From the sequence record SRR2962707_2035: DNA of 50,966 nucleotides, one strand, 5' to 3'. The stretch's first letter is position 1. Each line of letters begins with the position of its first letter. The notes beneath the pieces are model-generated. The model was not told the DNA's origin, ran no database searches, and worked only from the letters and a program-made list of their open reading frames with translations. A program made the translations under genes and the position numbers. This document shows, in pieces, positions 38,925 to 47,685 of this stretch.

Positions 38925-40031
38925 ATGTCAGTTTTCAAACGCGGCGCTTTTTGCGCGGCAATCGCCCTGCCCCTGCTTGCGACTTCGGTAAGCGCGCAGG
39001 ATATTTCGATCGCCTATGGTGCCTACAGCCCGCCGACGTCAGATTCGATCGACCAAGGGATCAAGGTATTTCTCGATTCCATGAAAGAGATGAGCAACGG
39101 CTCTATCGATTACGAACTGTTCGCGGGCGGAGTCATGGTCGCAGATCGCACCACACTTGCCGGCGTGCGCGATGGACTCGTGGATGGCGCGCAGATAGCC
39201 ACCATCTATTTTCCGTCTGAACTGCCCCAGAACAGCCTGATCACCAATCTCTCGCCTGCCCTGAATGCAGATGCCCGTGCCGTATCGGCCGCTGTGAGCG
39301 AATTCGTGTTGTTAAATTGCGAAGATTGCATGGAGGAACTGCGCGGTTGGAATATTGAGTATTTGGGCGGGTATGCGATTTCGACCTATGACCTGATATG
39401 TGTGGAGCCCGCCGAGGCGCTGGCAGACTTATCCGGCCGCACTGTGCGTGCCGCGGGCTCGCTTGGTCCGATCGCCACCACCCTTGGCATGGTGCCCGTC
39501 AATCTTGGACAGAGCGAAGCCTATGAAGGCCTGCAGCGCGGTCAGCTTGACTGTACACTTGGCTCGCCTGGCGCTTTGAAAAGCTTTTCTTATGGCGACG
39601 TCGCCAAGAACGTCATTTTAATCCAGACCTCGACACCATTTGGTGGGCCCTACTACGATCTCAGTCTGGATATCTGGGGACAGATGAGCGACGAGCAGAA
39701 GGCGATTGCCTATGAGAGCGCAGCCAAAGCCCAGGTTTCAGCGGCAGCCTCCTTCCTCGACAACGACCAGGCAGCGATCGACAGTGCCGACGAAAATGGC
39801 TACATCTTTATAGAGCCTGGCCCTGACATGCAGGCGGCGCTTGAAGAGTATCGCGAGGGTGTGGTCGAAGAGGTAATCGCAAATGGCGAAGCCGCTGGTA
39901 TTGACGATGCTGAGACGAAGGTCCGGACCTTCCTCGATATCGTCGAAAAATGGAGCGGTATCGTTGCAGAAAGCGACGACAACGATGCGATAGTCCAAGC
40001 CATGATGTCGGAAATATACGACAAGCTCTAG
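38925..40031 (+). CDS. dctP: TRAP transporter substrate-binding protein (DctP family)
   Basis: AGGAGG RBS, signal peptide, GVRDGLVD, DLSGRTVRA and EAYEGLQRGQLD motifs. Confidence 0.88.
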   Translation: MSVFKRGAFCAAIALPLLATSVSAQDISIAYGAYSPPTSDSIDQGIKVFLDSMKEMSNGSIDYELFAGGVMVADRTTLAGVRDGLVDGAQIATIYFPSELPQNSLITNLSPALNADARAVSAAVSEFVLLNCEDCMEELRGWNIEYLGGYAISTYDLICVEPAEALADLSGRTVRAAGSLGPIATTLGMVPVNLGQSEAYEGLQRGQLDCTLGSPGALKSFSYGDVAKNVILIQTSTPFGGPYYDLSLDIWGQMSDEQKAIAYESAAKAQVSAAASFLDNDQAAIDSADENGYIFIEPGPDMQAALEEYREGVVEEVIANGEAAGIDDAETKVRTFLDIVEKWSGIVAESDDNDAIVQAMMSEIYDKL

Positions 40032-40054
40032 GTTTCAACATTTGCCACAGGTAT

Positions 40055-40091
40055 TGAGCCAGCGCGGATCTTGCGCTGGCTCATTTTATTT
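40055..40091 (+). terminator. Rho-independent terminator after dctP
   Basis: tgagccagcgc...gcgctggctca followed by ttttattt. Confidence 0.85.
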
Positions 40092-40377
40092 ATTCTCTTT
40101 TCACGCAGGTGGGGGCTTCGGACCGGTCAGCAAACCTCGGCCTAATCTCCCTTCACCGGTTTGGTTTGTCAGCTAGCTCGTACAAACTCGAAATTCGTAT
40201 CTGATTCCTCGATGCGCAAGTTAGTCGATATGCGCTGCAGTACGGCAGACACAGTTTTGTCCTCCATCCCTGAAGCCCAGGCATGAGAAGTCAATCGGCA
40301 GCTTTTGGCTGTTCCAGCGCAGTTGAACTTGCGAGAACCTGGCCGCGCATGACGACGCTGCGGACGACTAAACGTCC

Positions 40378-40493
40378 TTGACCGTTGGCCACTGACATGG
40401 TCCAAGTGGCCAAGTTGGCCACTGGCGACATCAATGTTTTCAGTGACTTAAGGGACATATTTAGTTTTGCTGCGAATCCAGGTTCCCCAGCCA
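40378..40493 (+). repeat. Right copy of att-arm repeat ending in a tRNA-Gln-like 3' end (attR-like core 40473-40493)
   Basis: Aligns with 2095-2201 and ends cgaatccaggttccccagcca, i.e. T-loop, acceptor stem and CCA of a tRNA; no 5' tRNA half precedes it. Confidence 0.85.
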
Positions 40494-40728
40494 ATCCTTC
40501 CAGCATCGTGGGCAAGCTGGTTTCGTCGGAAATTTCCTGCAGTCTGCCTGAGGCGCAAAGATTTTTTCGGCCGAGCGGCAGATTCACTTGGGCCCTACTG
40601 AGAAAGGACCTTCCCAATGTTGGCGGCTTTCCCGTTTATGGTGCTGGCCCTGCCGGCAGTCGTCTCGCAGCCTTGGTTGAGGGCTTTTGTCGTGGCCGCG
40701 GTCTGGTTTGCTTGAAAGGGCAGCCGGT

Positions 40729-40902
40729 CTAGAAGGCATGCCGTGTGACGGGGACGGGTTCGACCTGTGCAAAAAGCACGGTTTCCGTCCGCTCGACCGG
40801 CGCAGGGTGCGCTTCAAATTCCGCTTTTCCGGCCAGCGCCGCGTGCAGCGCGAAGGGCGGCAGCAGGAAGACGAAAAGGAACGCCCAAAGAGGGTAGCGC
40901 AT
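40729..40902 (-). CDS. Small hypothetical exported/membrane protein (57 aa)
   Basis: Below the ORF-track cutoff. GGAG RBS, then MRYPLWAFLFVFLLPPFALHAALAGKAEFEAHPAPVERTETVLFAQVEPVPVTRHAF; hydrophobic N-terminus. Confidence 0.55.
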   Translation of the reverse strand: MRYPLWAFLFVFLLPPFALHAALAGKAEFEAHPAPVERTETVLFAQVEPVPVTRHAF

Positions 40903-40975
40903 GACGCTTGTTCTCCAACTTCATCGAACGCGATGAAGTGGGGCCACTATGGGCCTTAGCGCACCAACGGGCGTT

Positions 40976-42814
40976 TTAGGAAGTTGGTTGCATTTTATCT
41001 TGTGTTACGGCGGGCGGCGGCAACAGCAGTTGTGCCTCACGCGGGGCCGTTTCGCCGAACGCTATTGAAAGCACGGATTCGAGCGTCAGATAGGACCGCA
41101 CCAGCCTGAACGCTATATATTCGGGCAACCCGATCAAAGCCCCGATCCGGCCGTTGGCCAACGCTGCAAAAGCTGCCATGAGGGCCGGCGCCCCCAGAAC
41201 CACAGCAAAAACCGCCTGAACCGTCAGTGGGCTTTGCGGATTGAAACCCACGAAATAATACAGCACGCCAAAGATCACCAAGGGCACCGTCATGGCCCGT
41301 CGGCCCGAGTTGAGCAGCATGAAGGGCAGGATGATCTTGCCGCGCACCGAGGGCATCCAGCCGTCGAGATAATCGCGGTTGCGCGACGAGACGTGATAGA
41401 CCGAGCGGAACCAGCGCATGCGCTGTTCGCGCAGATGCTTCCAGCTTGCAGGAACTTCGGAGACATAGGTGATCGTCGGATCGCCGACGACGCGGAAGCC
41501 CATTTCGCCGATGCGCAGCGACATATCGGTATCTTCCCCATTCATGCCTCCGGTAAAGCCACCGGCATTGCGCACGGCCTCCGTACGATAGACGGCAAGC
41601 ATGCCGGGTACGCCGACGATGGCGTCAACCGCGCCATAGGCGACCTGATAATAGCCGTGCTTGAGAAGCGTTTCGAGGTTGCGCGCCCTGTCAAATTTCC
41701 CGGTGCCCGGGGCAATGGGCAATCCCCCTACCACGCCGACGTCGCCGCGCCAGAAGTGGCGCACGGCCCGCCGGACCGAAGCCGGAGATACCTGTGTATC
41801 GGCGTCGATCCGGATAACGATTTCAGTCGTGGTCCGGGCGATGCCCGCATTGAGCGCGTTCGACTTGCCGGGGATCGGCACGTCGACAACCTGTCCTCGC
41901 AGATTGGGCAGATCGGCAAAAATGCGAAGTGCCGTTTGGGCGGTCCCGTCGGTAGAGCAGTTGTCGAGCACCAGCACATTGACCTCGCCACCATATTGGG
42001 CGGCCGCTTCTTCGAGCGCGTTCAGCGTGCGCGGCAGGATATGGGCCTCGTTGTGCGCAGGAATGATGACCGTGACCGGCGGGCAGTATCCGGGCCGACG
42101 CCGCAACAGGGCGCAGAGCGTCCCCAATACATAGAGCAGGAAGAACAGCACCGGCAGGAACAGGAACACCCCCGGCCCCGTGCCGCCAAGCAAAGCAACC
42201 GAGCGCAGATCGCCCACCAGCGGCAGATCGAGCGTATCGATCCAGAGGGAAACGGCAATTGCCGCACCGACGGCAAGCACAATCAGAATGAACGACGTCA
42301 CCTTGAACCGCGGGTTGAACGGGGCAAACGGAGCCCGGCGGGGCATCGTCGCCTGGTCGAGCAGGCGGATCGAGAAGATATAAAAGCCGAACAGGCCGGA
42401 AAGAATTTCGACCACGTGGATCGAATAGACGAAGCCGGTCAGCCGGTAGGCCGCGATGTTGATGAGATCGAACGCGGCGCAAACGACGATGTAATAGAGC
42501 GTGACTTCAAGGAAAAAACGCAACCGCTGGGGCGCCCTGGCGCCCACCACCGCCGAAAAGGCGACGAAGAACGAGACCATGAAGATGCGCAGCGGAATTG
42601 AGTGGATGCCCAGATAGGGCGAGAATACTACGTCGCCATTGGGAAAGATTGCGGCCAGCGGCCCGGCGCTGATGGCGGCCAGCAATGCCGCGGCCACTGC
42701 CGTAAAGATTACCAGAAGGGTCGGCGCCGCCCAGATCGAAAGCGGTCGCGTCAGCTTTGCAGGCGCGCTGTCCACCGACCAGTAATCGTGATCCTTTGGC
42801 GCGCGCTGCAGCAT
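40976..42814 (-). CDS. Processive family-2 glycosyltransferase (synthase type) with N- and C-terminal TM segments
   Basis: IPAHNE, LDNCSTD, GKSNALN, RIDADT (DxD), GEDTD and QRMRW (QxxRW) motifs. Confidence 0.9.
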   Translation of the reverse strand: MLQRAPKDHDYWSVDSAPAKLTRPLSIWAAPTLLVIFTAVAAALLAAISAGPLAAIFPNGDVVFSPYLGIHSIPLRIFMVSFFVAFSAVVGARAPQRLRFFLEVTLYYIVVCAAFDLINIAAYRLTGFVYSIHVVEILSGLFGFYIFSIRLLDQATMPRRAPFAPFNPRFKVTSFILIVLAVGAAIAVSLWIDTLDLPLVGDLRSVALLGGTGPGVFLFLPVLFFLLYVLGTLCALLRRRPGYCPPVTVIIPAHNEAHILPRTLNALEEAAAQYGGEVNVLVLDNCSTDGTAQTALRIFADLPNLRGQVVDVPIPGKSNALNAGIARTTTEIVIRIDADTQVSPASVRRAVRHFWRGDVGVVGGLPIAPGTGKFDRARNLETLLKHGYYQVAYGAVDAIVGVPGMLAVYRTEAVRNAGGFTGGMNGEDTDMSLRIGEMGFRVVGDPTITYVSEVPASWKHLREQRMRWFRSVYHVSSRNRDYLDGWMPSVRGKIILPFMLLNSGRRAMTVPLVIFGVLYYFVGFNPQSPLTVQAVFAVVLGAPALMAAFAALANGRIGALIGLPEYIAFRLVRSYLTLESVLSIAFGETAPREAQLLLPPPAVTQDKMQPTS

Positions 42815-42816
42815 GG

Positions 42817-44472
42817 TCAGCGGTCGATCAGCATGACCGCTGCGTTATCATCGAGGTGCTCGATCAGCGCAGCGGCGCGTGGGTCGGCAACCGCGATCAA
42901 GGTCGGGTCCTTGTCCTCATTGGGCACGACCAGCCAGATGGTCTGCGCACCGGCACCGAATTGACCTGCAAGGCGCAACGCGGACTTAAGGCCGCCCGCC
43001 GTGGTCATCTGGATCTTTGCCGGCGCGGTATCGACTTCCGTTCCGAACACTACGCTGCTCCGGACCGGCAGGAAGCTTCCCAGCAGCGCCGCTGCCGTCC
43101 GGACTTCGCCGCGCGACAGGGTCGTTGCAACCTTGAGCCCGATCGTCTGGTCCGCGGCCAGCGCCCGCACCATCTGCGGCCACCCCTCGGTGGGCTGGAC
43201 GCCTTGTGGGGTCAGACGGGAGGTGGGCAACAGCTGCGCCTGTGCGTCCGGGCCGGCCCGGCAGATCGAATCGTTGGGGCTCGTGTCGATCAACTCGATC
43301 AGAATGGCGTTGGACAAGGTCTGGATTTCGAACGGCAGTGTGACGTCGAGAGAAATCGTATCCTCCTGCCCGTCGAACCGCTCGGTCTTGAGCAGATTGC
43401 CGTTGAGCGAAACGCGCACCACCCAGTCATTGCCGGGCGCCAGCGTCGAGGTCTTGAGATCGATCGCAAAGCGCCGCGGCATCAAGCCGTCGGGCAGATC
43501 GGCAAGAGCGTAGGGAATTGTCCAGCGCCGCGATCCACGAAAATTCTTGAGCAAGGTTTCGGCCGAAAGCTCGTCAACGGACACCGGCCAGGCATCGGGT
43601 GCAGGCAGCATTGAGGCAGACATGCGGGCGGCGAGCAAAGCATCGATCCCTGCTGCGCCTGAAACCGCGACGCGGCCATCGGGATCGAGCGTTAGCGCCG
43701 AGCCGCCGACCTGTGCCATGACGAGATCGGGCGTGGCATCAGCGGCGGCAAAGCGCACTTCCATGCCCTTGCGGGCAAGGCCCTGCCGCGCCCAAATGGC
43801 CTGCGCCTGCCCCTCGGCATCGCTCCCCAATCCGAGCCACGCCGGGTCCCCCATCGTAGCGATGCGCACTGCACGGGTATCGATGGGATCGTCGGTAAAC
43901 AGCGCCAGTCCGCTATCGGCGCTCAGAGTGATCGCCGCGCCCGAATTGGCGGCATCGACCGGGCAGATCTGGCCGCCGCTTGTCGTGCCGCGGCCATCCA
44001 GCGTCACAACCACCGCATTCGACAGCAATTCGTCGGGGGCAAGTGCGATCTCGACTTCGTGGCGGGTGAGGCCCGCATCGAGCACGACCTCGCCACGACG
44101 CACGCCATCTACGCTGATCGTGACGCGCCCGTCCCCATCCGCACCCAGTTGCGAGTCGAGCGCGAGCTTGAGGGTGCCGGCCGAAAAATTGATCCCCGAT
44201 GGCAGGGCGAAGCGGATTTCGGCCGAATCGGGGAAACCGGCAAGCCCGACCCATTGGTCGGCTCGGGGCCGGGAAATCCAGATTTCGGTGGCGCCGTCGT
44301 CATCGGGTGCGTTGGGGTCGGCTGCGGGAAATTCCAGCCTCGGCAACGCCGAGGTGTCCACGGCCGTTGTCAGCCGCGCCAGCACATCGCTATCGCGTGT
44401 GTAGGCGATGGCGACGCCGACAATCACAAAGCTCAGAATCGCGATAAACAGCAGGCGCAGAAAGTCTTTCAT
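42817..44472 (-). CDS. BcsB-like periplasmic co-polymerase protein
   Basis: N-terminal TM/signal and two jelly-roll-like repeats (IRFALP..GTLKLAL..VTISVDG and WTIPY..FAIDL..VRVSLNGNLL..SNAILIEL), each followed by a Cys (QICP, SICR), resembling BcsB CBD1/CBD2. Confidence 0.65.
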   Translation of the reverse strand: MKDFLRLLFIAILSFVIVGVAIAYTRDSDVLARLTTAVDTSALPRLEFPAADPNAPDDDGATEIWISRPRADQWVGLAGFPDSAEIRFALPSGINFSAGTLKLALDSQLGADGDGRVTISVDGVRRGEVVLDAGLTRHEVEIALAPDELLSNAVVVTLDGRGTTSGGQICPVDAANSGAAITLSADSGLALFTDDPIDTRAVRIATMGDPAWLGLGSDAEGQAQAIWARQGLARKGMEVRFAAADATPDLVMAQVGGSALTLDPDGRVAVSGAAGIDALLAARMSASMLPAPDAWPVSVDELSAETLLKNFRGSRRWTIPYALADLPDGLMPRRFAIDLKTSTLAPGNDWVVRVSLNGNLLKTERFDGQEDTISLDVTLPFEIQTLSNAILIELIDTSPNDSICRAGPDAQAQLLPTSRLTPQGVQPTEGWPQMVRALAADQTIGLKVATTLSRGEVRTAAALLGSFLPVRSSVVFGTEVDTAPAKIQMTTAGGLKSALRLAGQFGAGAQTIWLVVPNEDKDPTLIAVADPRAAALIEHLDDNAAVMLIDR

Positions 44473-45689
44473 CGCAGGGCGAAACGCGGCGCTTCGAGTT
44501 GTGGCGTTTCAGGCTCGCGCCGGCCGGGCCACAGCGCGGTTGCCGGAATTGTGTCGAGATTGGCCCGCTCGATGAAGCGCAGGGCAATGTCCACGGTCTC
44601 GGTCAGCAACTCGTCGCGCAGCAGGATCGGTTCGAGACCGAGACCCTTCAGGGTCTTGCTGGAAACCGCGAGATCGTTTTCAGCGGCCTCGCTGCGCGGG
44701 TTGTCCAGATACTCGATGTCGGCGCCAGTGAGTTCGGCAACCAGTTCGGCCAGATCGCGTACGCGATGGGTCTCGGCCACCTGGTTGATGATGCGAACCG
44801 GGTCGCCGGCGGCAGGCGGATTTTCGATCGCCAGGGCGACGCAGCGCACCGTGTCCTGGATGTTGATGAAAGCACGGGTCTGCCCACCGGTCCCGTGGAC
44901 GGTCAGCGGATGCCCGGCGGCCGCCTGCATAAGGAAGCGGTTGAGCACGGTGCCGTAATCGCCGTCATAGTCGAACCGGTTGATGAGCGCAGGATCGAGC
45001 CGGGTTTGCTCGGTCTGGGTGCCCCATACGATGCCCTGGTGCAGATCGGTGATCTTCATCCGGTCATTTCGGGCATAGAACTGAAACATCAGCTGATCCA
45101 TGGATTTGGTCAGGTGATAGATGCTTCCGGGCTTGGTGGGATAAAGGATCGAGCGCGGATGCCGGGCACCGTCGGGTCCTTCGACGACGACGTCGAGATA
45201 CCCTTCAGGGATTTCCAACCCGTCGCCCTCATAACCATAAACGCCCATCGTCCCGAGATGGACAAAGTGCGTATCGAGCCCGAGTTCGACAATAGCGGAC
45301 AGCACGTTGTGGGTGCCGTTTATGTTGTTATCGACAGTGTAGGCCCTGTGCGCTGCGTCACGCATCGAGTAGGGCGCGGCGCGCTGTTCGGCGAAATGGA
45401 CTATGGCATCGGGCCGGACCGACGCCAGCAAGCGCCGCAGCTCGCACCGGTCCCGGGCGATATCGAGTTCGACAATATCGATGTCGTTCCCGCTCACCTC
45501 TTTCCAGGTGTTGAGGCGTTCGTCGATGCTGCTGATGGGTGTCAGGCTCGGAGCGCCAAGTTCTTCGGCGATATGCCGGCGCACGAAGTTGTCAACTATA
45601 ACGACTTCATATCCAAGTGCCGAAAGATGAAGCGATGTGGGCCAGCCACAAAAGCCATCGCCGCCAAGAACAAGAACCGTTTTAGACAT
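44469..45689 (-). CDS. sqdB: UDP-sulfoquinovose synthase
   Basis: VLGGDGFCGWPTSLHLS, HFAEQRAAPYSM, HLGTMGVYG, PGSIYHLTK, TDLHQGIVWG and NRFDYDGDYGTVLNRF are SqdB/SQD1 signatures; AAGGAAGG RBS. Confidence 0.93.
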   Translation of the reverse strand: MSKTVLVLGGDGFCGWPTSLHLSALGYEVVIVDNFVRRHIAEELGAPSLTPISSIDERLNTWKEVSGNDIDIVELDIARDRCELRRLLASVRPDAIVHFAEQRAAPYSMRDAAHRAYTVDNNINGTHNVLSAIVELGLDTHFVHLGTMGVYGYEGDGLEIPEGYLDVVVEGPDGARHPRSILYPTKPGSIYHLTKSMDQLMFQFYARNDRMKITDLHQGIVWGTQTEQTRLDPALINRFDYDGDYGTVLNRFLMQAAAGHPLTVHGTGGQTRAFINIQDTVRCVALAIENPPAAGDPVRIINQVAETHRVRDLAELVAELTGADIEYLDNPRSEAAENDLAVSSKTLKGLGLEPILLRDELLTETVDIALRFIERANLDTIPATALWPGRREPETPQLEAPRFALR

Positions 45690-45895
45690 AGAGGGACCTT
45701 CCTTCGCAAAGCCTTTCGGCTCGGCGAATTGTAAATTCTTCTGAAGGTTTCGGCTGTCCCCCAACAACGACTGGCGCTCGCGCCGTACGCGCTTTTACGA
45801 AAACCTTCGTTGTTGATAACGCTTACGCGGTTTAACTCAAGTTAGGAATTTGTGAACGGTACGTTCTTGTAGCCGGTCAAATCGGCCAAAGTCCG

Positions 45896-45936
45896 CCAGA
45901 AAAAAGGCGCCGCCCGAGGGCAGCGCCTTTTTCTGG
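45896..45936. terminator. Bidirectional-type intrinsic terminator after the MFS gene
   Basis: ccagaaaaaaggcgc-cgcccgagggca-gcgcctttttctgg. Confidence 0.85.
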
Positions 45937-45937
45937 A

Positions 45938-47434
45938 TCAGTGCCCGGGCACCGGTTCGGCCCCCAGGGGCTCGGCCGGTGGCCGTCGGATGAAGAACGC
46001 CGCCACGATCGCGAACATCGAGATGATCGCCCCGCACAGGAATGCGAGCTGGATGCCTTGCGACATGGCCGGGACCGCATCGATGCCATCTGCAACGAGA
46101 TCGGCGGCGCGCAGCGTCATCAACGAGACGAACAACGCGATGCCCGCCGCGCCGGCGACCTGCTGGATGGTGCCGATCACCGCGCTGCCATGCGAATAGA
46201 GATGACGGGGCAACGAGCCGAGGCTCGAGGTGAACAGCGGGGTGAACATCAGCGCCAGCCCAAGGCTGAGCGTGATGTGAAGCCCGAGGATGAAATAGAT
46301 CGACGTGAACTGATTCAGCGTCGTCATACCCCAGAGCACCCCGCTCACCAGCACGGTTCCCGGCACGATCAGCACCGTCGGCCCGAACCTGTCGAACAGC
46401 CGTCCAACGAACGGTGCCATCAGGCCCATGACCAGCCCGCCCGGCAGCAGGGTCAGCCCGGTCTGGGACGCATCGAGCCCCAGAACGTTCTGCATATAGA
46501 TCGGCAGCAGGATGAGCGAGCCGAACATGGCCATCATCGAAATCGCCATCATGATGACGCTGACGGTGAACACCGGCGTGCCGAAGGTTCGCAGGTCGAG
46601 TAGCGCCGCGTCGCGCTTCTGGAGTGCGAACTGACGCGTGATGAACAGGCCGAGGCCGATCACGCCGACGACGACGGGCACCCACGCCGGGAACATGGAT
46701 GTGCCGCCGCCATGAGAAGCGTCACCGCCCAGGCTGCTCAATCCGTAAACCAGCCCGCCAAAACCCAGCGCGGACAGAATGATCGACAGGACGTCGAGCG
46801 GCGCCTTGGTCGGCGTGGTCACATTCTGGATCTTGGTGGCTCCCAGGGCCAGCGCGCCCAGCGCGATGGGCAGCACCAGATAGAACATCCAGCGCCATTC
46901 GAGGTGCTCGAGAATGAAGCCGCCAATGGTCGGGCCCAACGCGGGCGCCACCGAAATGACGATGGAGATATTGCCCATGGTCCGGCCACGCGATTCGGGC
47001 GGCACGAGGTTCATGATGGTGGTCATGAGCAGCGGCATCATGATTGCGGTGCCGCAGGCCTGAATGATGCGCCCCACCAGCAGCACCTCAAAGCCCGGCG
47101 CCACGCCCGACAGCAGGGTTCCCGCACTGAATGCAGACATGGCGAGAATAAAGACCGGGCGCGTGTTGAGCCGTTGCAGCAGATACCCGGTAATGGGGAT
47201 GACCACAGCCATGGTCAGCATGAAGGCCGAGGTCAGCCATTGCGCGGCGCTGGCGCTGATTTCCAGGTCGGCCATCAGGTGTGGAATGGCCACGCTCATG
47301 ATGGTTTCGTTGAGGATCACCACGAAGGCCGAAACCAGCAGCAGGCCAATGACGAGCCTGTTGCGGGCCGTGTTATCGGGTTCGCCCAAAGGCGTTTGGG
47401 GCGCAGACGCGCCGTTCACATCGGTCGGTGACAT
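45938..47434 (-). CDS. DHA2-family (EmrB/QacA, LmrB-like) MFS efflux transporter
   Basis: LNETIMSVAIP, QWLTSAFML, GRIIQACG, APALGPTIGG and WRWMF motifs; about 14 TM segments. Confidence 0.92.
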   Translation of the reverse strand: MSPTDVNGASAPQTPLGEPDNTARNRLVIGLLLVSAFVVILNETIMSVAIPHLMADLEISASAAQWLTSAFMLTMAVVIPITGYLLQRLNTRPVFILAMSAFSAGTLLSGVAPGFEVLLVGRIIQACGTAIMMPLLMTTIMNLVPPESRGRTMGNISIVISVAPALGPTIGGFILEHLEWRWMFYLVLPIALGALALGATKIQNVTTPTKAPLDVLSIILSALGFGGLVYGLSSLGGDASHGGGTSMFPAWVPVVVGVIGLGLFITRQFALQKRDAALLDLRTFGTPVFTVSVIMMAISMMAMFGSLILLPIYMQNVLGLDASQTGLTLLPGGLVMGLMAPFVGRLFDRFGPTVLIVPGTVLVSGVLWGMTTLNQFTSIYFILGLHITLSLGLALMFTPLFTSSLGSLPRHLYSHGSAVIGTIQQVAGAAGIALFVSLMTLRAADLVADGIDAVPAMSQGIQLAFLCGAIISMFAIVAAFFIRRPPAEPLGAEPVPGH

Positions 47435-47685
47435 TGGATATCTCTTGGTCTGGCGGGCCCGCCGCTCCAGCGTGCACGCAAAATTAGGCCGTGTTGAATC
47501 TGCCTGTTGAAAACGAAAGTCAACCCGTCGGATTTCAATCCTTTTATTCCGGGAGCGCACGGCGGGCGAATAACACTTGCCCTGCCCCCCATATCGGAAT
47601 TGACTGAACGCGCTGACCCCCGGGACAGCCACACTAGAACCGGGCTGCGCCGTCTTGGGGGAGGCCAAGCAGCCCGAACCAAAGG

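Follow-up and report, generated by a model that had tools for sequence, protein, structure and literature searches.

Sulfoquinovosyl diacylglycerol (SQDG) carries α-linked sulfoquinovose (SQ), which is added by retaining glycosyltransferases of family 4 (GT4) or family 8 (GT8). In the described SQDG pathways (sqdB-sqdX and SQD1-SQD2, with a GT4 enzyme, and sqdB-sqdD-sqdC together with sqdA, with a GT8 enzyme), a uridine diphosphate (UDP)-sulfoquinovose synthase comes first, and sqdB heads an operon with the transferase. Cellulose synthase, exemplified by the BcsA-BcsB pair of Rhodobacter sphaeroides (4hg6/5ej1) and the Bcs macrocomplex of Escherichia coli (9fmt/9b8v), combines a membrane glycosyltransferase of family 2 (GT2) containing the D, DxD, (T/G)ED and QxxRW motifs with a partner in which carbohydrate-binding domains (CBD) alternate with flavodoxin-like domains (FD) in a CBD-FD-CBD-FD fold, the two genes being adjacent. 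Here we describe a locus that resembles both systems. In the sequence record SRR2962707_2035, analysed as a stretch of 50,966 nucleotides (hereafter, the window), three consecutive genes at positions 40976 to 45689 encode a predicted UDP-sulfoquinovose synthase, a predicted periplasmic protein of the BcsB fold and a multi-transmembrane (multi-TM) GT2. Current reviews treat SQ as a headgroup of phototroph lipids, and a 2026 FEMS review of SQ cycling frames its biosynthesis as SqdB-SqdX alone (PMC13436972).

We lean towards the view that the trio is a synthase-dependent system for a β-linked SQ glycan; that the product is a homopolymer of β-linked SQ, a 'sulfoquinovan', we regard as possible rather than probable. 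In the proposed mechanism, SqdB would combine UDP-glucose with sulfite into UDP-α-sulfoquinovose in the cytoplasm, and the GT2, an inverting, membrane-embedded enzyme of the cellulose/hyaluronan synthase fold, would join SQ, alone or alternating with, for example, glucose, into a β-linked chain and pass the growing chain across the inner membrane. The BcsB-fold protein, held beside the GT2 by its N-terminal helix, would accept the chain on the periplasmic side through a pair of domains resembling carbohydrate-binding modules, and in many relatives of the system a dedicated outer-membrane β-barrel of about 300 amino acids (aa) would carry the product to the surface. In the Pelagibacterium-type lineage represented by the window, which lacks the barrel, the product may remain in the periplasm, be bound to the envelope or exit by another route. 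A sulfoquinovan would be a polysaccharide of strongly anionic character, free of phosphorus, in which every sugar bears one C-S bonded sulfonate. It would be threaded through the GT2 and guided by the BcsB-like protein, and would be either released at the surface of bacteria that have the barrel or retained in the periplasm or envelope of those that do not.

Three coupled genes for a predicted UDP-sulfoquinovose synthase, a BcsB-fold protein and a synthase-like glycosyltransferase

The three genes, taken from an open reading frame (ORF) listing, are:
44469-45689, minus strand: sqdB (406 aa, counted from ATG)
42817-44472, minus strand: gene for a periplasmic protein of predicted BcsB fold with an N-terminal anchor (551 aa)
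40976-42814, minus strand: multi-TM GT2, candidate sulfoquinovosyl transferase or synthase (612 aa)

An initial sequence-only reading of this stretch had described three tightly coupled genes, and its coordinates and both junctions are borne out. The TGA of sqdB is overlapped by the ATG of the 551-aa gene (ATGA) at GCGATGAAAG, and 2 nucleotides separate the stop codon of the latter from the ATG of the GT2 gene at CGCTGACCATGCTG. The sqdB frame is open further upstream, as far as a TTG at 45767; the alignment with SQD1 begins at residue 3 of the ATG-started protein.

The same reading had called the 406-aa protein a UDP-sulfoquinovose synthase, which is supported by a full-length match to SQD1 of Arabidopsis thaliana (1qrr_A; phmmer E = 6.6e-97, 328 bits, query residues 3-387 aligned with chain residues 2-382). 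The protein has the SDR/epimerase fold, with the Rossmann nucleotide-binding motif GGDGFCGW at residues 9-16, and its GTMGvYG and YHLtK pair with GTMGEYG and YHLSK of SQD1 in the alignment; following the SQD1 structure papers, we take these to hold the catalytic Thr and the Tyr-His-x-x-Lys stretch. The NCBIfam equivalog NF041015 (UDP-sulfoquinovose synthase) is its best family by far (E = 3.5e-100, with GalE next at 6.9e-14). It is 59-66% identical to the SqdBs of genomes lacking the GT2, and 64% identical to that of one canonical sqdB-sqdD-sqdC (sqdB-GT8-SDR) operon. By these comparisons, the protein is a close SQD1/SqdB relative and a predicted UDP-sulfoquinovose synthase.

The 551-aa protein matches no Pfam or NCBIfam family at E≤0.01 and thus misses the threshold of PF03170 (BcsB). 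Among its homologs, 41 of 89 have a precomputed PF03170 match, and the relative at locus L028 passes the threshold (37.3 bits vs 21). A profile search of the Protein Data Bank with the BcsB-like alignment returned a chance match only (E = 0.63), so that a fold search was needed. The AlphaFold2 (AF2) model (predicted local distance difference test, pLDDT, 81.4) shows a jelly roll-α/β-jelly roll-α/β architecture, as in BcsB; in a Foldseek search with this model, ranks 1 to 22 are all BcsB chains (E from 4.4e-22 to 4.2e-16). Structural comparison with VIA aligned residues 59-542 of the model with E. coli BcsB (Z 14.5, root-mean-square deviation 6.6, 439 residues aligned), with single carbohydrate-binding modules next (Z 8-9.5). 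Judging from the model, the protein has the four-domain BcsB fold, that is, a jelly-roll CBD followed by an FD, twice.

The two-repeat BcsB-like architecture read from the sequence stands, with the correction that the membrane anchor is N-terminal, not C-terminal like that of BcsB. The sole hydrophobic segment of the protein is N-terminal (residues 4-22), and the C-terminus is a β-strand, with no C-terminal TM segment. The conservation value of the N-terminal helix is 0.65, compared to 0.62 and 0.66 for the jelly rolls and 0.28 for the linker. With conservation on a par with the jelly rolls and far above the linker, the helix is probably kept as a working membrane anchor and not removed as a signal peptide.

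The GT2 matches PF00535 (E = 1.4e-23), and all Pfam families that it matches are of the GT2 type; neither Pfam nor NCBIfam detects a PilZ domain on it. Six hydrophobic segments precede the glycosyltransferase domain and at least two follow it. The motifs D289, D337-A-D339 (D337xD339), G426-E427-D428 (GED replacing TED) and Q464-R-M-R-W468 (Q464-R465-x-R467-W468) are invariant across an alignment of 26 sequences that spans 35-89% identity. The AF2 model (pLDDT 83.5, predicted template modeling score 0.85) gave the following fold matches with VIA:
PcManGT (6yv7): Z 29.1, 327 residues aligned
Chlorella virus hyaluronan synthase (HAS): Z 26.3, 367 residues aligned
E. coli BcsA: Z 25.9, 365 residues aligned
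Yeast Chs1: Z 23.8, 333 residues aligned
Soluble GT-A enzymes: Z of about 20-22, at most 266 residues aligned

The channel-forming synthases thus align about 100 more residues of the GT2 than the soluble GT-A enzymes do, and the model indicates a GT-A domain packed on interface and TM helices as in channel-forming synthases. Both the processive signature (D, DxD, GED, QxxRW) and the membrane fold of the sequence-only reading are retained, whereas the closeness to BcsA implied there gives way to a greater similarity to PcManGT and HAS. The N-terminal domain of about 240 aa, with six helices, is extra relative to HAS and PcManGT, and is conserved. The GT2 scores far below the equivalog cutoffs of PgaC (73.8 vs 422.3 bits), NodC (48.6 vs 550) and CelA (20.8 vs 699.1) and, because every one of these curated models is missed, it represents a family of its own; a search of the ESM Atlas yielded generic GT2 clusters only.

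We also predicted the complex between the GT2 (residues 15-590) and the BcsB-like protein (residues 1-424). The prediction was classed as 'weak support', with a score of 0.54 compared to 0.00 for the best of three controls; at least 39% of the contacts agree between runs, and the pLDDT of the partner is at least 68. Of 78 solved complexes, 51 attained the mark used for this class, compared to 2 of 108 mismatched pairs; with scores of 0.60 or less, only 5 of the 78 solved complexes did so, together with all 4 passing mismatches. Because the similar BcsA-BcsB complex has been solved, the predictor may owe a portion of the score to familiarity with it.

The GT2 as the only candidate sulfoquinovosyltransferase found in five related genomes

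Five related Devosiaceae genomes (those behind loci L001, L003, L005, L006 and L013) each contain a single SqdB match, that of the trio. A query for SqdD (GT8, PF01501) from the canonical operon had no match in any of the five at E≤1e-5, and a query for an sqdB-linked GT4 from another genome had one weak match (E = 4.6e-7) in one of them. By the SqdD and GT4 queries, UDP-SQ has no candidate user other than the GT2 in these genomes. The separate SQ lipid cluster that the sequence-only reading proposed to look for is not apparent in these searches, and its observation that sqdC, sqdD and sqdX are missing beside the trio is correct.

According to CAZy, GT2 enzymes invert, and would yield a β-sulfoquinovoside from UDP-α-SQ. 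Because SQDG contains α-SQ, the product of the GT2 would not be ordinary SQDG, whatever the acceptor. We found no paper linking sulfoquinovosyl compounds with Pelagibacterium, Devosia, Cucumibacter, Maritalea or Hoeflea in a literature search that left most species descriptions in the International Journal of Systematic and Evolutionary Microbiology outside its reach.

Conservation of the trio across genomes and metagenomes

When species-representative genomes were searched with the BcsB-like alignment, 18 loci were recovered, from Pelagibacterium, Devosia, Cucumibacter, Plastorhodobacter, a metagenome-assembled genome of Aurantimonadaceae, Pseudooceanicola and the gammaproteobacterium Alloalcanivorax; here and below, presence counts rest on tblastn and hidden Markov model searches. 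The order sqdB > BcsB-like > GT2 is found at 17 of the 18 loci. The 18th genome, Devosia alba, has an orphan BcsB-like copy at the matched locus and the full trio at another locus. The orphan copy (L015:7001-8695), away from sqdB and the GT2 gene, adjoins a gene for a 739-aa fusion of AI-2E-transporter, B12-binding and GAF domains (L015:4110-6329) and one for a two-partner secretion transporter of the ShlB/FhaC type.

In metagenomes, a search with the GT2 alignment led to 166 confirmed loci, of which 80 were kept. For the 52 loci that extend 3.3 kb or more upstream of the GT2 gene, the gene orders are:
Canonical order: 43 of 52 (including L084, placed here from its coordinates)
All three genes in another order: 1 of 52 (L104)
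sqdB-GT2 without the BcsB-like gene: 3 of 52 (L086, L098, L099)
GT2 and BcsB-like genes, no sqdB in reach: 4 of 52 (L080, L094, L100, L108; three with the barrel)
Neither sqdB nor the BcsB-like gene: 1 of 52 (L093, a short contig)

The recurrence of the same order at the great majority of genome and metagenome loci indicates that the genes are grouped beyond chance, and conservation of the trio, on which the sequence-only reading had made its proposal depend, is clear. Apart from the outer-membrane barrel described below, no further gene was found to be broadly conserved beside the module.

In an even sample of the class, comprising 401 genomes, SqdB is present in 29 and the GT2 in 3, including the centre genome. 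Of the other two carriers of the GT2, one (G256) keeps all three genes and the barrel in a rearranged, divergent layout. In the second (G385), sqdB is paired with the GT2 gene, and a profile search found the BcsB-like gene nowhere in the genome. At this BcsB-less locus (L027, G385:C3, 5563-11672), the gene directly upstream of sqdB encodes a Porin_4-type porin, and the GT2 gene is followed by two ORFs (181 and 247 aa) with no Pfam match; together with the porin, their products may replace the missing parts.

The same trio, in the same order and with overlapping starts, is also encoded in a Rhodococcus qingshengii plasmid (NZ_CP054208.1, 200624-216123, L126) that is mobilizable, linear and 523 kb in size. 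The Rhodococcus SqdB is 62.5% identical to that of the window, and the other two proteins match the BcsB-like profile (E = 3e-29) and the GT2 profile (E = 1.3e-193). The presence of the trio on this plasmid indicates that the module is not confined to a single phylum and that mobile DNA can carry it. On the plasmid, a gene for a SulP anion transporter is located about 3 kb (three genes) upstream of the trio and an alkyl sulfatase gene directly downstream, which suggests a local sulfur-supply context.

An outer-membrane barrel in relatives of the system

Some homologs of the GT2 are 917-922 aa long, and the additional, C-terminal portion of about 300 residues looks like an outer-membrane β-barrel with its own hydrophobic leader. 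The barrel is encoded by a separate gene next to the module at L011, L017, L018 and L028, and it is adjacent to or fused with the GT2 at 19 of the 43 metagenome loci with enough flanking sequence on both sides. Among the barrel members, 8 of 13 match PF10082 (BBP2_2, putative beta-barrel porin), and matches to SlipAM are weak.

The long forms include P0175, P0180, P0188 and P0193, with GT2s about 50% identical to that of the window, and fused or shared frames occur at L051, L067-L071, L079, L081, L087-L089 and L103. Fusion of an inner-membrane enzyme to an outer-membrane barrel is topologically odd; the long forms may be genuine fusions, or two overlapping genes may have been read together. 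A gene for a GH10 glycoside hydrolase is encoded divergently upstream of sqdB (for example, L070:3682-4872, minus strand) in one marine lineage (8 loci, several of them near-identical, in the range of L069-L076, L079 and L081); this enzyme could correspond to the hydrolases found with other synthase-dependent systems. At some loci of this lineage, a response regulator, proteins with TPR and HEAT repeats and, downstream, a second GT2 of 478 aa are also encoded.

The predicted product and alternative explanations

A synthase-like GT2, a tethered protein of BcsB architecture, a barrel in relatives and a single sugar-nucleotide enzyme fit a synthase-dependent pathway for an SQ glycan. The analysis establishes the gene identities, folds, motifs and conserved gene order, and reveals no further candidate for an SQ transferase in related genomes; the donor specificity, processivity and translocation activity of the GT2 and the role of the BcsB-like protein are inferred.

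Several observations weigh against such a pathway. For every member, the product is a prediction from genes and models, and SqdB obtains 335.6 bits on NF041015, under the cutoff of 575. The best fold match of the GT2, PcManGT (Z 29.1), is an N-glycan mannosyltransferase rather than a polymer synthase, and because it is not processive, the fold alone does not settle the processivity of the GT2. The QxxRW motif is also found in lipid-glycosylating GT21 enzymes, and the GT2 passes the threshold of PF13506 (GT21; 37.4 bits vs 21.7). The barrel was not found in the window or in any of the five Devosiaceae genomes with a profile that detected it in 3 of 3 positive-control genomes, which leaves export unexplained in this lineage. 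The BcsB-like gene is missing from L086, L098, L099 and G385 and so is not always needed, and the machine may not be strictly SQ-specific because 4 of the 52 metagenome loci have no sqdB in reach. Finally, the major polar lipids described for Devosiaceae include unidentified glycolipids (PMC7179689), which leaves room for a lipid product.

The main rival, which we consider unlikely, is that the GT2 is a β-sulfoquinovosyl lipid synthase. It would add one or a few β-SQ residues to diacylglycerol, ceramide or another membrane lipid, producing a β-sulfoquinovosyl glycolipid as a phosphorus-free anionic lipid. Handling or moving this glycolipid in the envelope would fall to the BcsB-like protein and, where relatives have one, to the barrel. 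The GT21 match, the Devosiaceae glycolipids, the sqdB-GT2 pairs without the BcsB-like gene and the lack of another SQ transferase candidate in the five related genomes are all compatible with such an enzyme, and PcManGT, as the title of the 6yv7 paper indicates, uses lipid-linked acceptors. The processive GT21s of Agrobacterium and Mesorhizobium, with their D, D, D, QxxRW signature, do make β-glycosyl diacylglycerols, but known GT21s are much smaller than the GT2 and lack the 240-aa six-helix N-terminal domain. Furthermore, no part in the glycosylation of lipids at the cytoplasmic face is known for a periplasmic protein of 550 aa that combines two jelly rolls of the carbohydrate-binding type with the complete BcsB architecture, and the barrel partner belongs to the BBP2_2 family, members of which are encoded in exopolysaccharide clusters.

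It is less probable still that the GT2 and the BcsB-like protein make a neutral β-glucan or another polymer from a common UDP-sugar, with SqdB providing only a minor component, such as a primer, a cap or an occasional substituent, or a precursor for an unlinked pathway. HAS exemplifies how two donors can be used by a single glycosyltransferase domain with this fold, and the four metagenome loci that combine the GT2 and BcsB-like genes, three of them with the barrel, without a nearby sqdB would be readily accounted for. However, sqdB is the only sugar-nucleotide gene of the module and is translationally coupled, and its link to the module persists through the rearrangement in G256 and the transfer to Actinomycetota. 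Moreover, the module-linked SqdBs cluster apart from most others in a quick, midpoint-rooted tree (3 label changes compared to a mean of 10.4 for shuffled labels), which we read as clustering only, not as evidence of donor or direction, and no other acceptor pathway for SQ was found in the five genomes.

Very improbable is a role of the GT2 in making a polyprenyl-phosphate-β-SQ carrier, in the manner of ArnC, GtrB or DPM1, from which an unlinked GT-C enzyme would move SQ to lipopolysaccharide, a glycoprotein or another glycan in the periplasm: GT2-family polyprenyl-phosphate glycosyltransferases do yield β-linked carriers and ArnC chains are among the sequence and fold matches of the GT2, but these matches are far weaker (Foldseek 3e-9 vs 1.8e-14; about 110 residues in phmmer) and confined to the glycosyltransferase core, ArnC-type enzymes lack the QxxRW motif that is invariant in the GT2 family, and no conserved GT-C gene is located near the module. 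That SQ occurs as a component of an archaeal N-glycan (PMC4388408) is a further point in favor of this role.

If the trio indeed makes a β-linked SQ glycan, its product would be a carbon-sulfonated anionic glycan, with a C-S bond rather than a sulfate, of a kind not yet described in bacteria, and SQ would be a new substrate class for cellulose synthase-like enzymes and BcsB-fold partners. Such a system would constitute a heterotrophic source of SQ in the marine and soil sulfur cycle. A sulfoquinovan, if this is the product, would be a new class of natural polysaccharides and a source of environmental SQ other than phototrophs, present in marine and soil bacteria and in Actinomycetota. The system is directly testable because it is compact, with three or four genes, and present in cultured, non-pathogenic strains; cultured carriers include Pelagibacterium halotolerans, P. 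lacus XYN52, Cucumibacter marinus DSM 18995, Devosia albogilva CCM 7427 and Alloalcanivorax marinus SY10-13, the last of which has the barrel.

Flanking regions and RNA contigs

A gene for an MFS transporter (45938-47668) lies upstream of the trio. Between this gene and sqdB, two elements were delineated:
45900-45927, minus strand: terminator-like GC hairpin with a T-run, GGCGCTGCCC-TC-GGGCGGCGCC-TTTTTT (direct reading of the sequence)
45830-45871, minus strand: conserved block ahead of sqdB, possible promoter or operator, TACAAGAACGTACCGTTCACAAA..CTAACTTGAGTTAAA (alignment of related loci)

The hairpin follows the MFS gene, is retained, with compensatory changes, in L002 and L003 and is absent from the listing of the pattern scan. 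Because the hairpin and T-run are kept, the trio looks like a separate transcription unit, and the hairpin looks like its 5' boundary. The TACAAGAACGTACCGTTCACAAA..CTAACTTGAGTTAAA block is kept in four Pelagibacterium-type loci (the window, L001, L002 and L003), with diverging flanks in L002, and might be a promoter or an operator; this reading comes from these four loci, L004 and L005 having aligned poorly and the rows of L031 and L035, which lie in coding sequence, having been set aside. An Rfam scan of 39800-46100 yielded no match at E≤0.1, and a promoter and terminator pattern scan around the trio showed no excess over shuffled sequence.

Other neighbors in the window include genes for a gamma-glutamyltranspeptidase and an IclR regulator and, on the other side of the trio, for a DctP-type binding protein. 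The MFS transporter, the gamma-glutamyltranspeptidase and the IclR regulator were considered as parts of the module and rejected, given that they are kept only in the closest Pelagibacterium loci; the gene for the DctP-type protein is likewise restricted to the closest relatives and is not counted as part of the system. The 944 bp between the GT2 stop codon and the convergent DctP gene (40032-40975) contain no ORF longer than 115 aa and no Rfam match; the pattern scan places a terminator-like hairpin for the DctP gene at 40055-40083. Positions 1-40000 are rich in genes for TRAP (DctPQM) and tripartite tricarboxylate (TctC) transporters and include an MmgE/PrpD-family gene and an SDR gene, a gene content typical of marine heterotrophic Alphaproteobacteria; the Pfam scan covered 32.7-40 kb of this region.

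In two RNA-seq runs of one study, contigs 97-99% similar to the window cover most of 40473-45926. One contig of 2228 nucleotides spans the sqdB/BcsB-like junction; the BcsB-like/GT2 junction is bridged by none of the listed contigs, two of which meet there and share about 5 nucleotides. These contigs are silent on strand, level and single transcript, and may include DNA carry-over. Contigs from the RNA libraries also span 40473-40855, within the intergenic stretch between the GT2 and DctP genes.

Comparison with known systems

In their records, homologs of the trio proteins are called no more than hypothetical protein or glycosyltransferase, with 'BcsB' used in one instance. In a literature search that left most subscription journals outside its reach, we found no description of a bacterial SQ polymer or of an sqdB-GT2-BcsB system. 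Among the matches listed, SQ-containing glycans or residues were named only in archaeal papers, and nothing relevant appeared on SQ in combination with exopolysaccharide, capsule, O-antigen or cellulose synthase.

The SQDG pathways share with the trio the synthase and its position at the head of the operon. They differ in the transferase, which is a retaining GT4 or GT8 enzyme in contrast to the multi-TM GT2 of the trio, such that the product of the latter is predicted not to be α-SQDG; in the sqdC/sqdA partner, which is not part of the trio; and in the periplasmic BcsB-fold protein, which has no counterpart in the lipid pathways. In the N-glycan of Sulfolobus acidocaldarius, Agl3 is the enzyme on which SQ depends (PMC4388408). 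The Agl3 system directs UDP-SQ to a glycoconjugate other than SQDG, as is predicted for the trio, but it is archaeal, proceeds through a lipid-linked oligosaccharide for protein N-glycosylation and involves no synthase or BcsB-type machine; the SQ of this N-glycan is β-linked.

With respect to the machinery, the closest folds to the GT2 are class I HAS and the minimal cellulose synthase-like PcManGT, all of which, like the GT2, lack PilZ; the GT2 differs in having the six-helix N-terminal domain and a seemingly obligate BcsB-like neighbor. In E. coli, the NfrB-NfrA-NfrC system (the N4 glycan receptor; PMC8669472) reportedly combines a sugar-nucleotide enzyme, a membrane GT2 and an outer-membrane partner to make a homopolymer of an unusual sugar, and is said to be a similarly compact module. 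The logic of the trio appears to be the same, with a different sugar-nucleotide enzyme, no detectable domain binding cyclic diguanylate, a BcsB-fold partner and, in this lineage, no outer-membrane part.

The Bcs system resembles the relatives of the trio also in that an outer-membrane barrel completes an envelope-spanning set, although this component is BcsC in Bcs and a BBP2_2-type barrel of about 300 aa in the relatives. Unlike BcsA, the GT2 of the trio has no PilZ domain, and no other bcs genes are located nearby. The C-terminal TM anchor of BcsB packs on the synthase, whereas the BcsB-like protein of the trio appears to be anchored at the N-terminus. The sugar in Bcs is glucose, whereas the dedicated donor enzyme of the trio, SqdB, points to SQ as the predicted sugar. 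Thus, the type of machine, a GT2 synthase with a BcsB-fold partner, is known, and what is new is the predicted class of substrate and product, the topology of the anchor and the outer-membrane partner.

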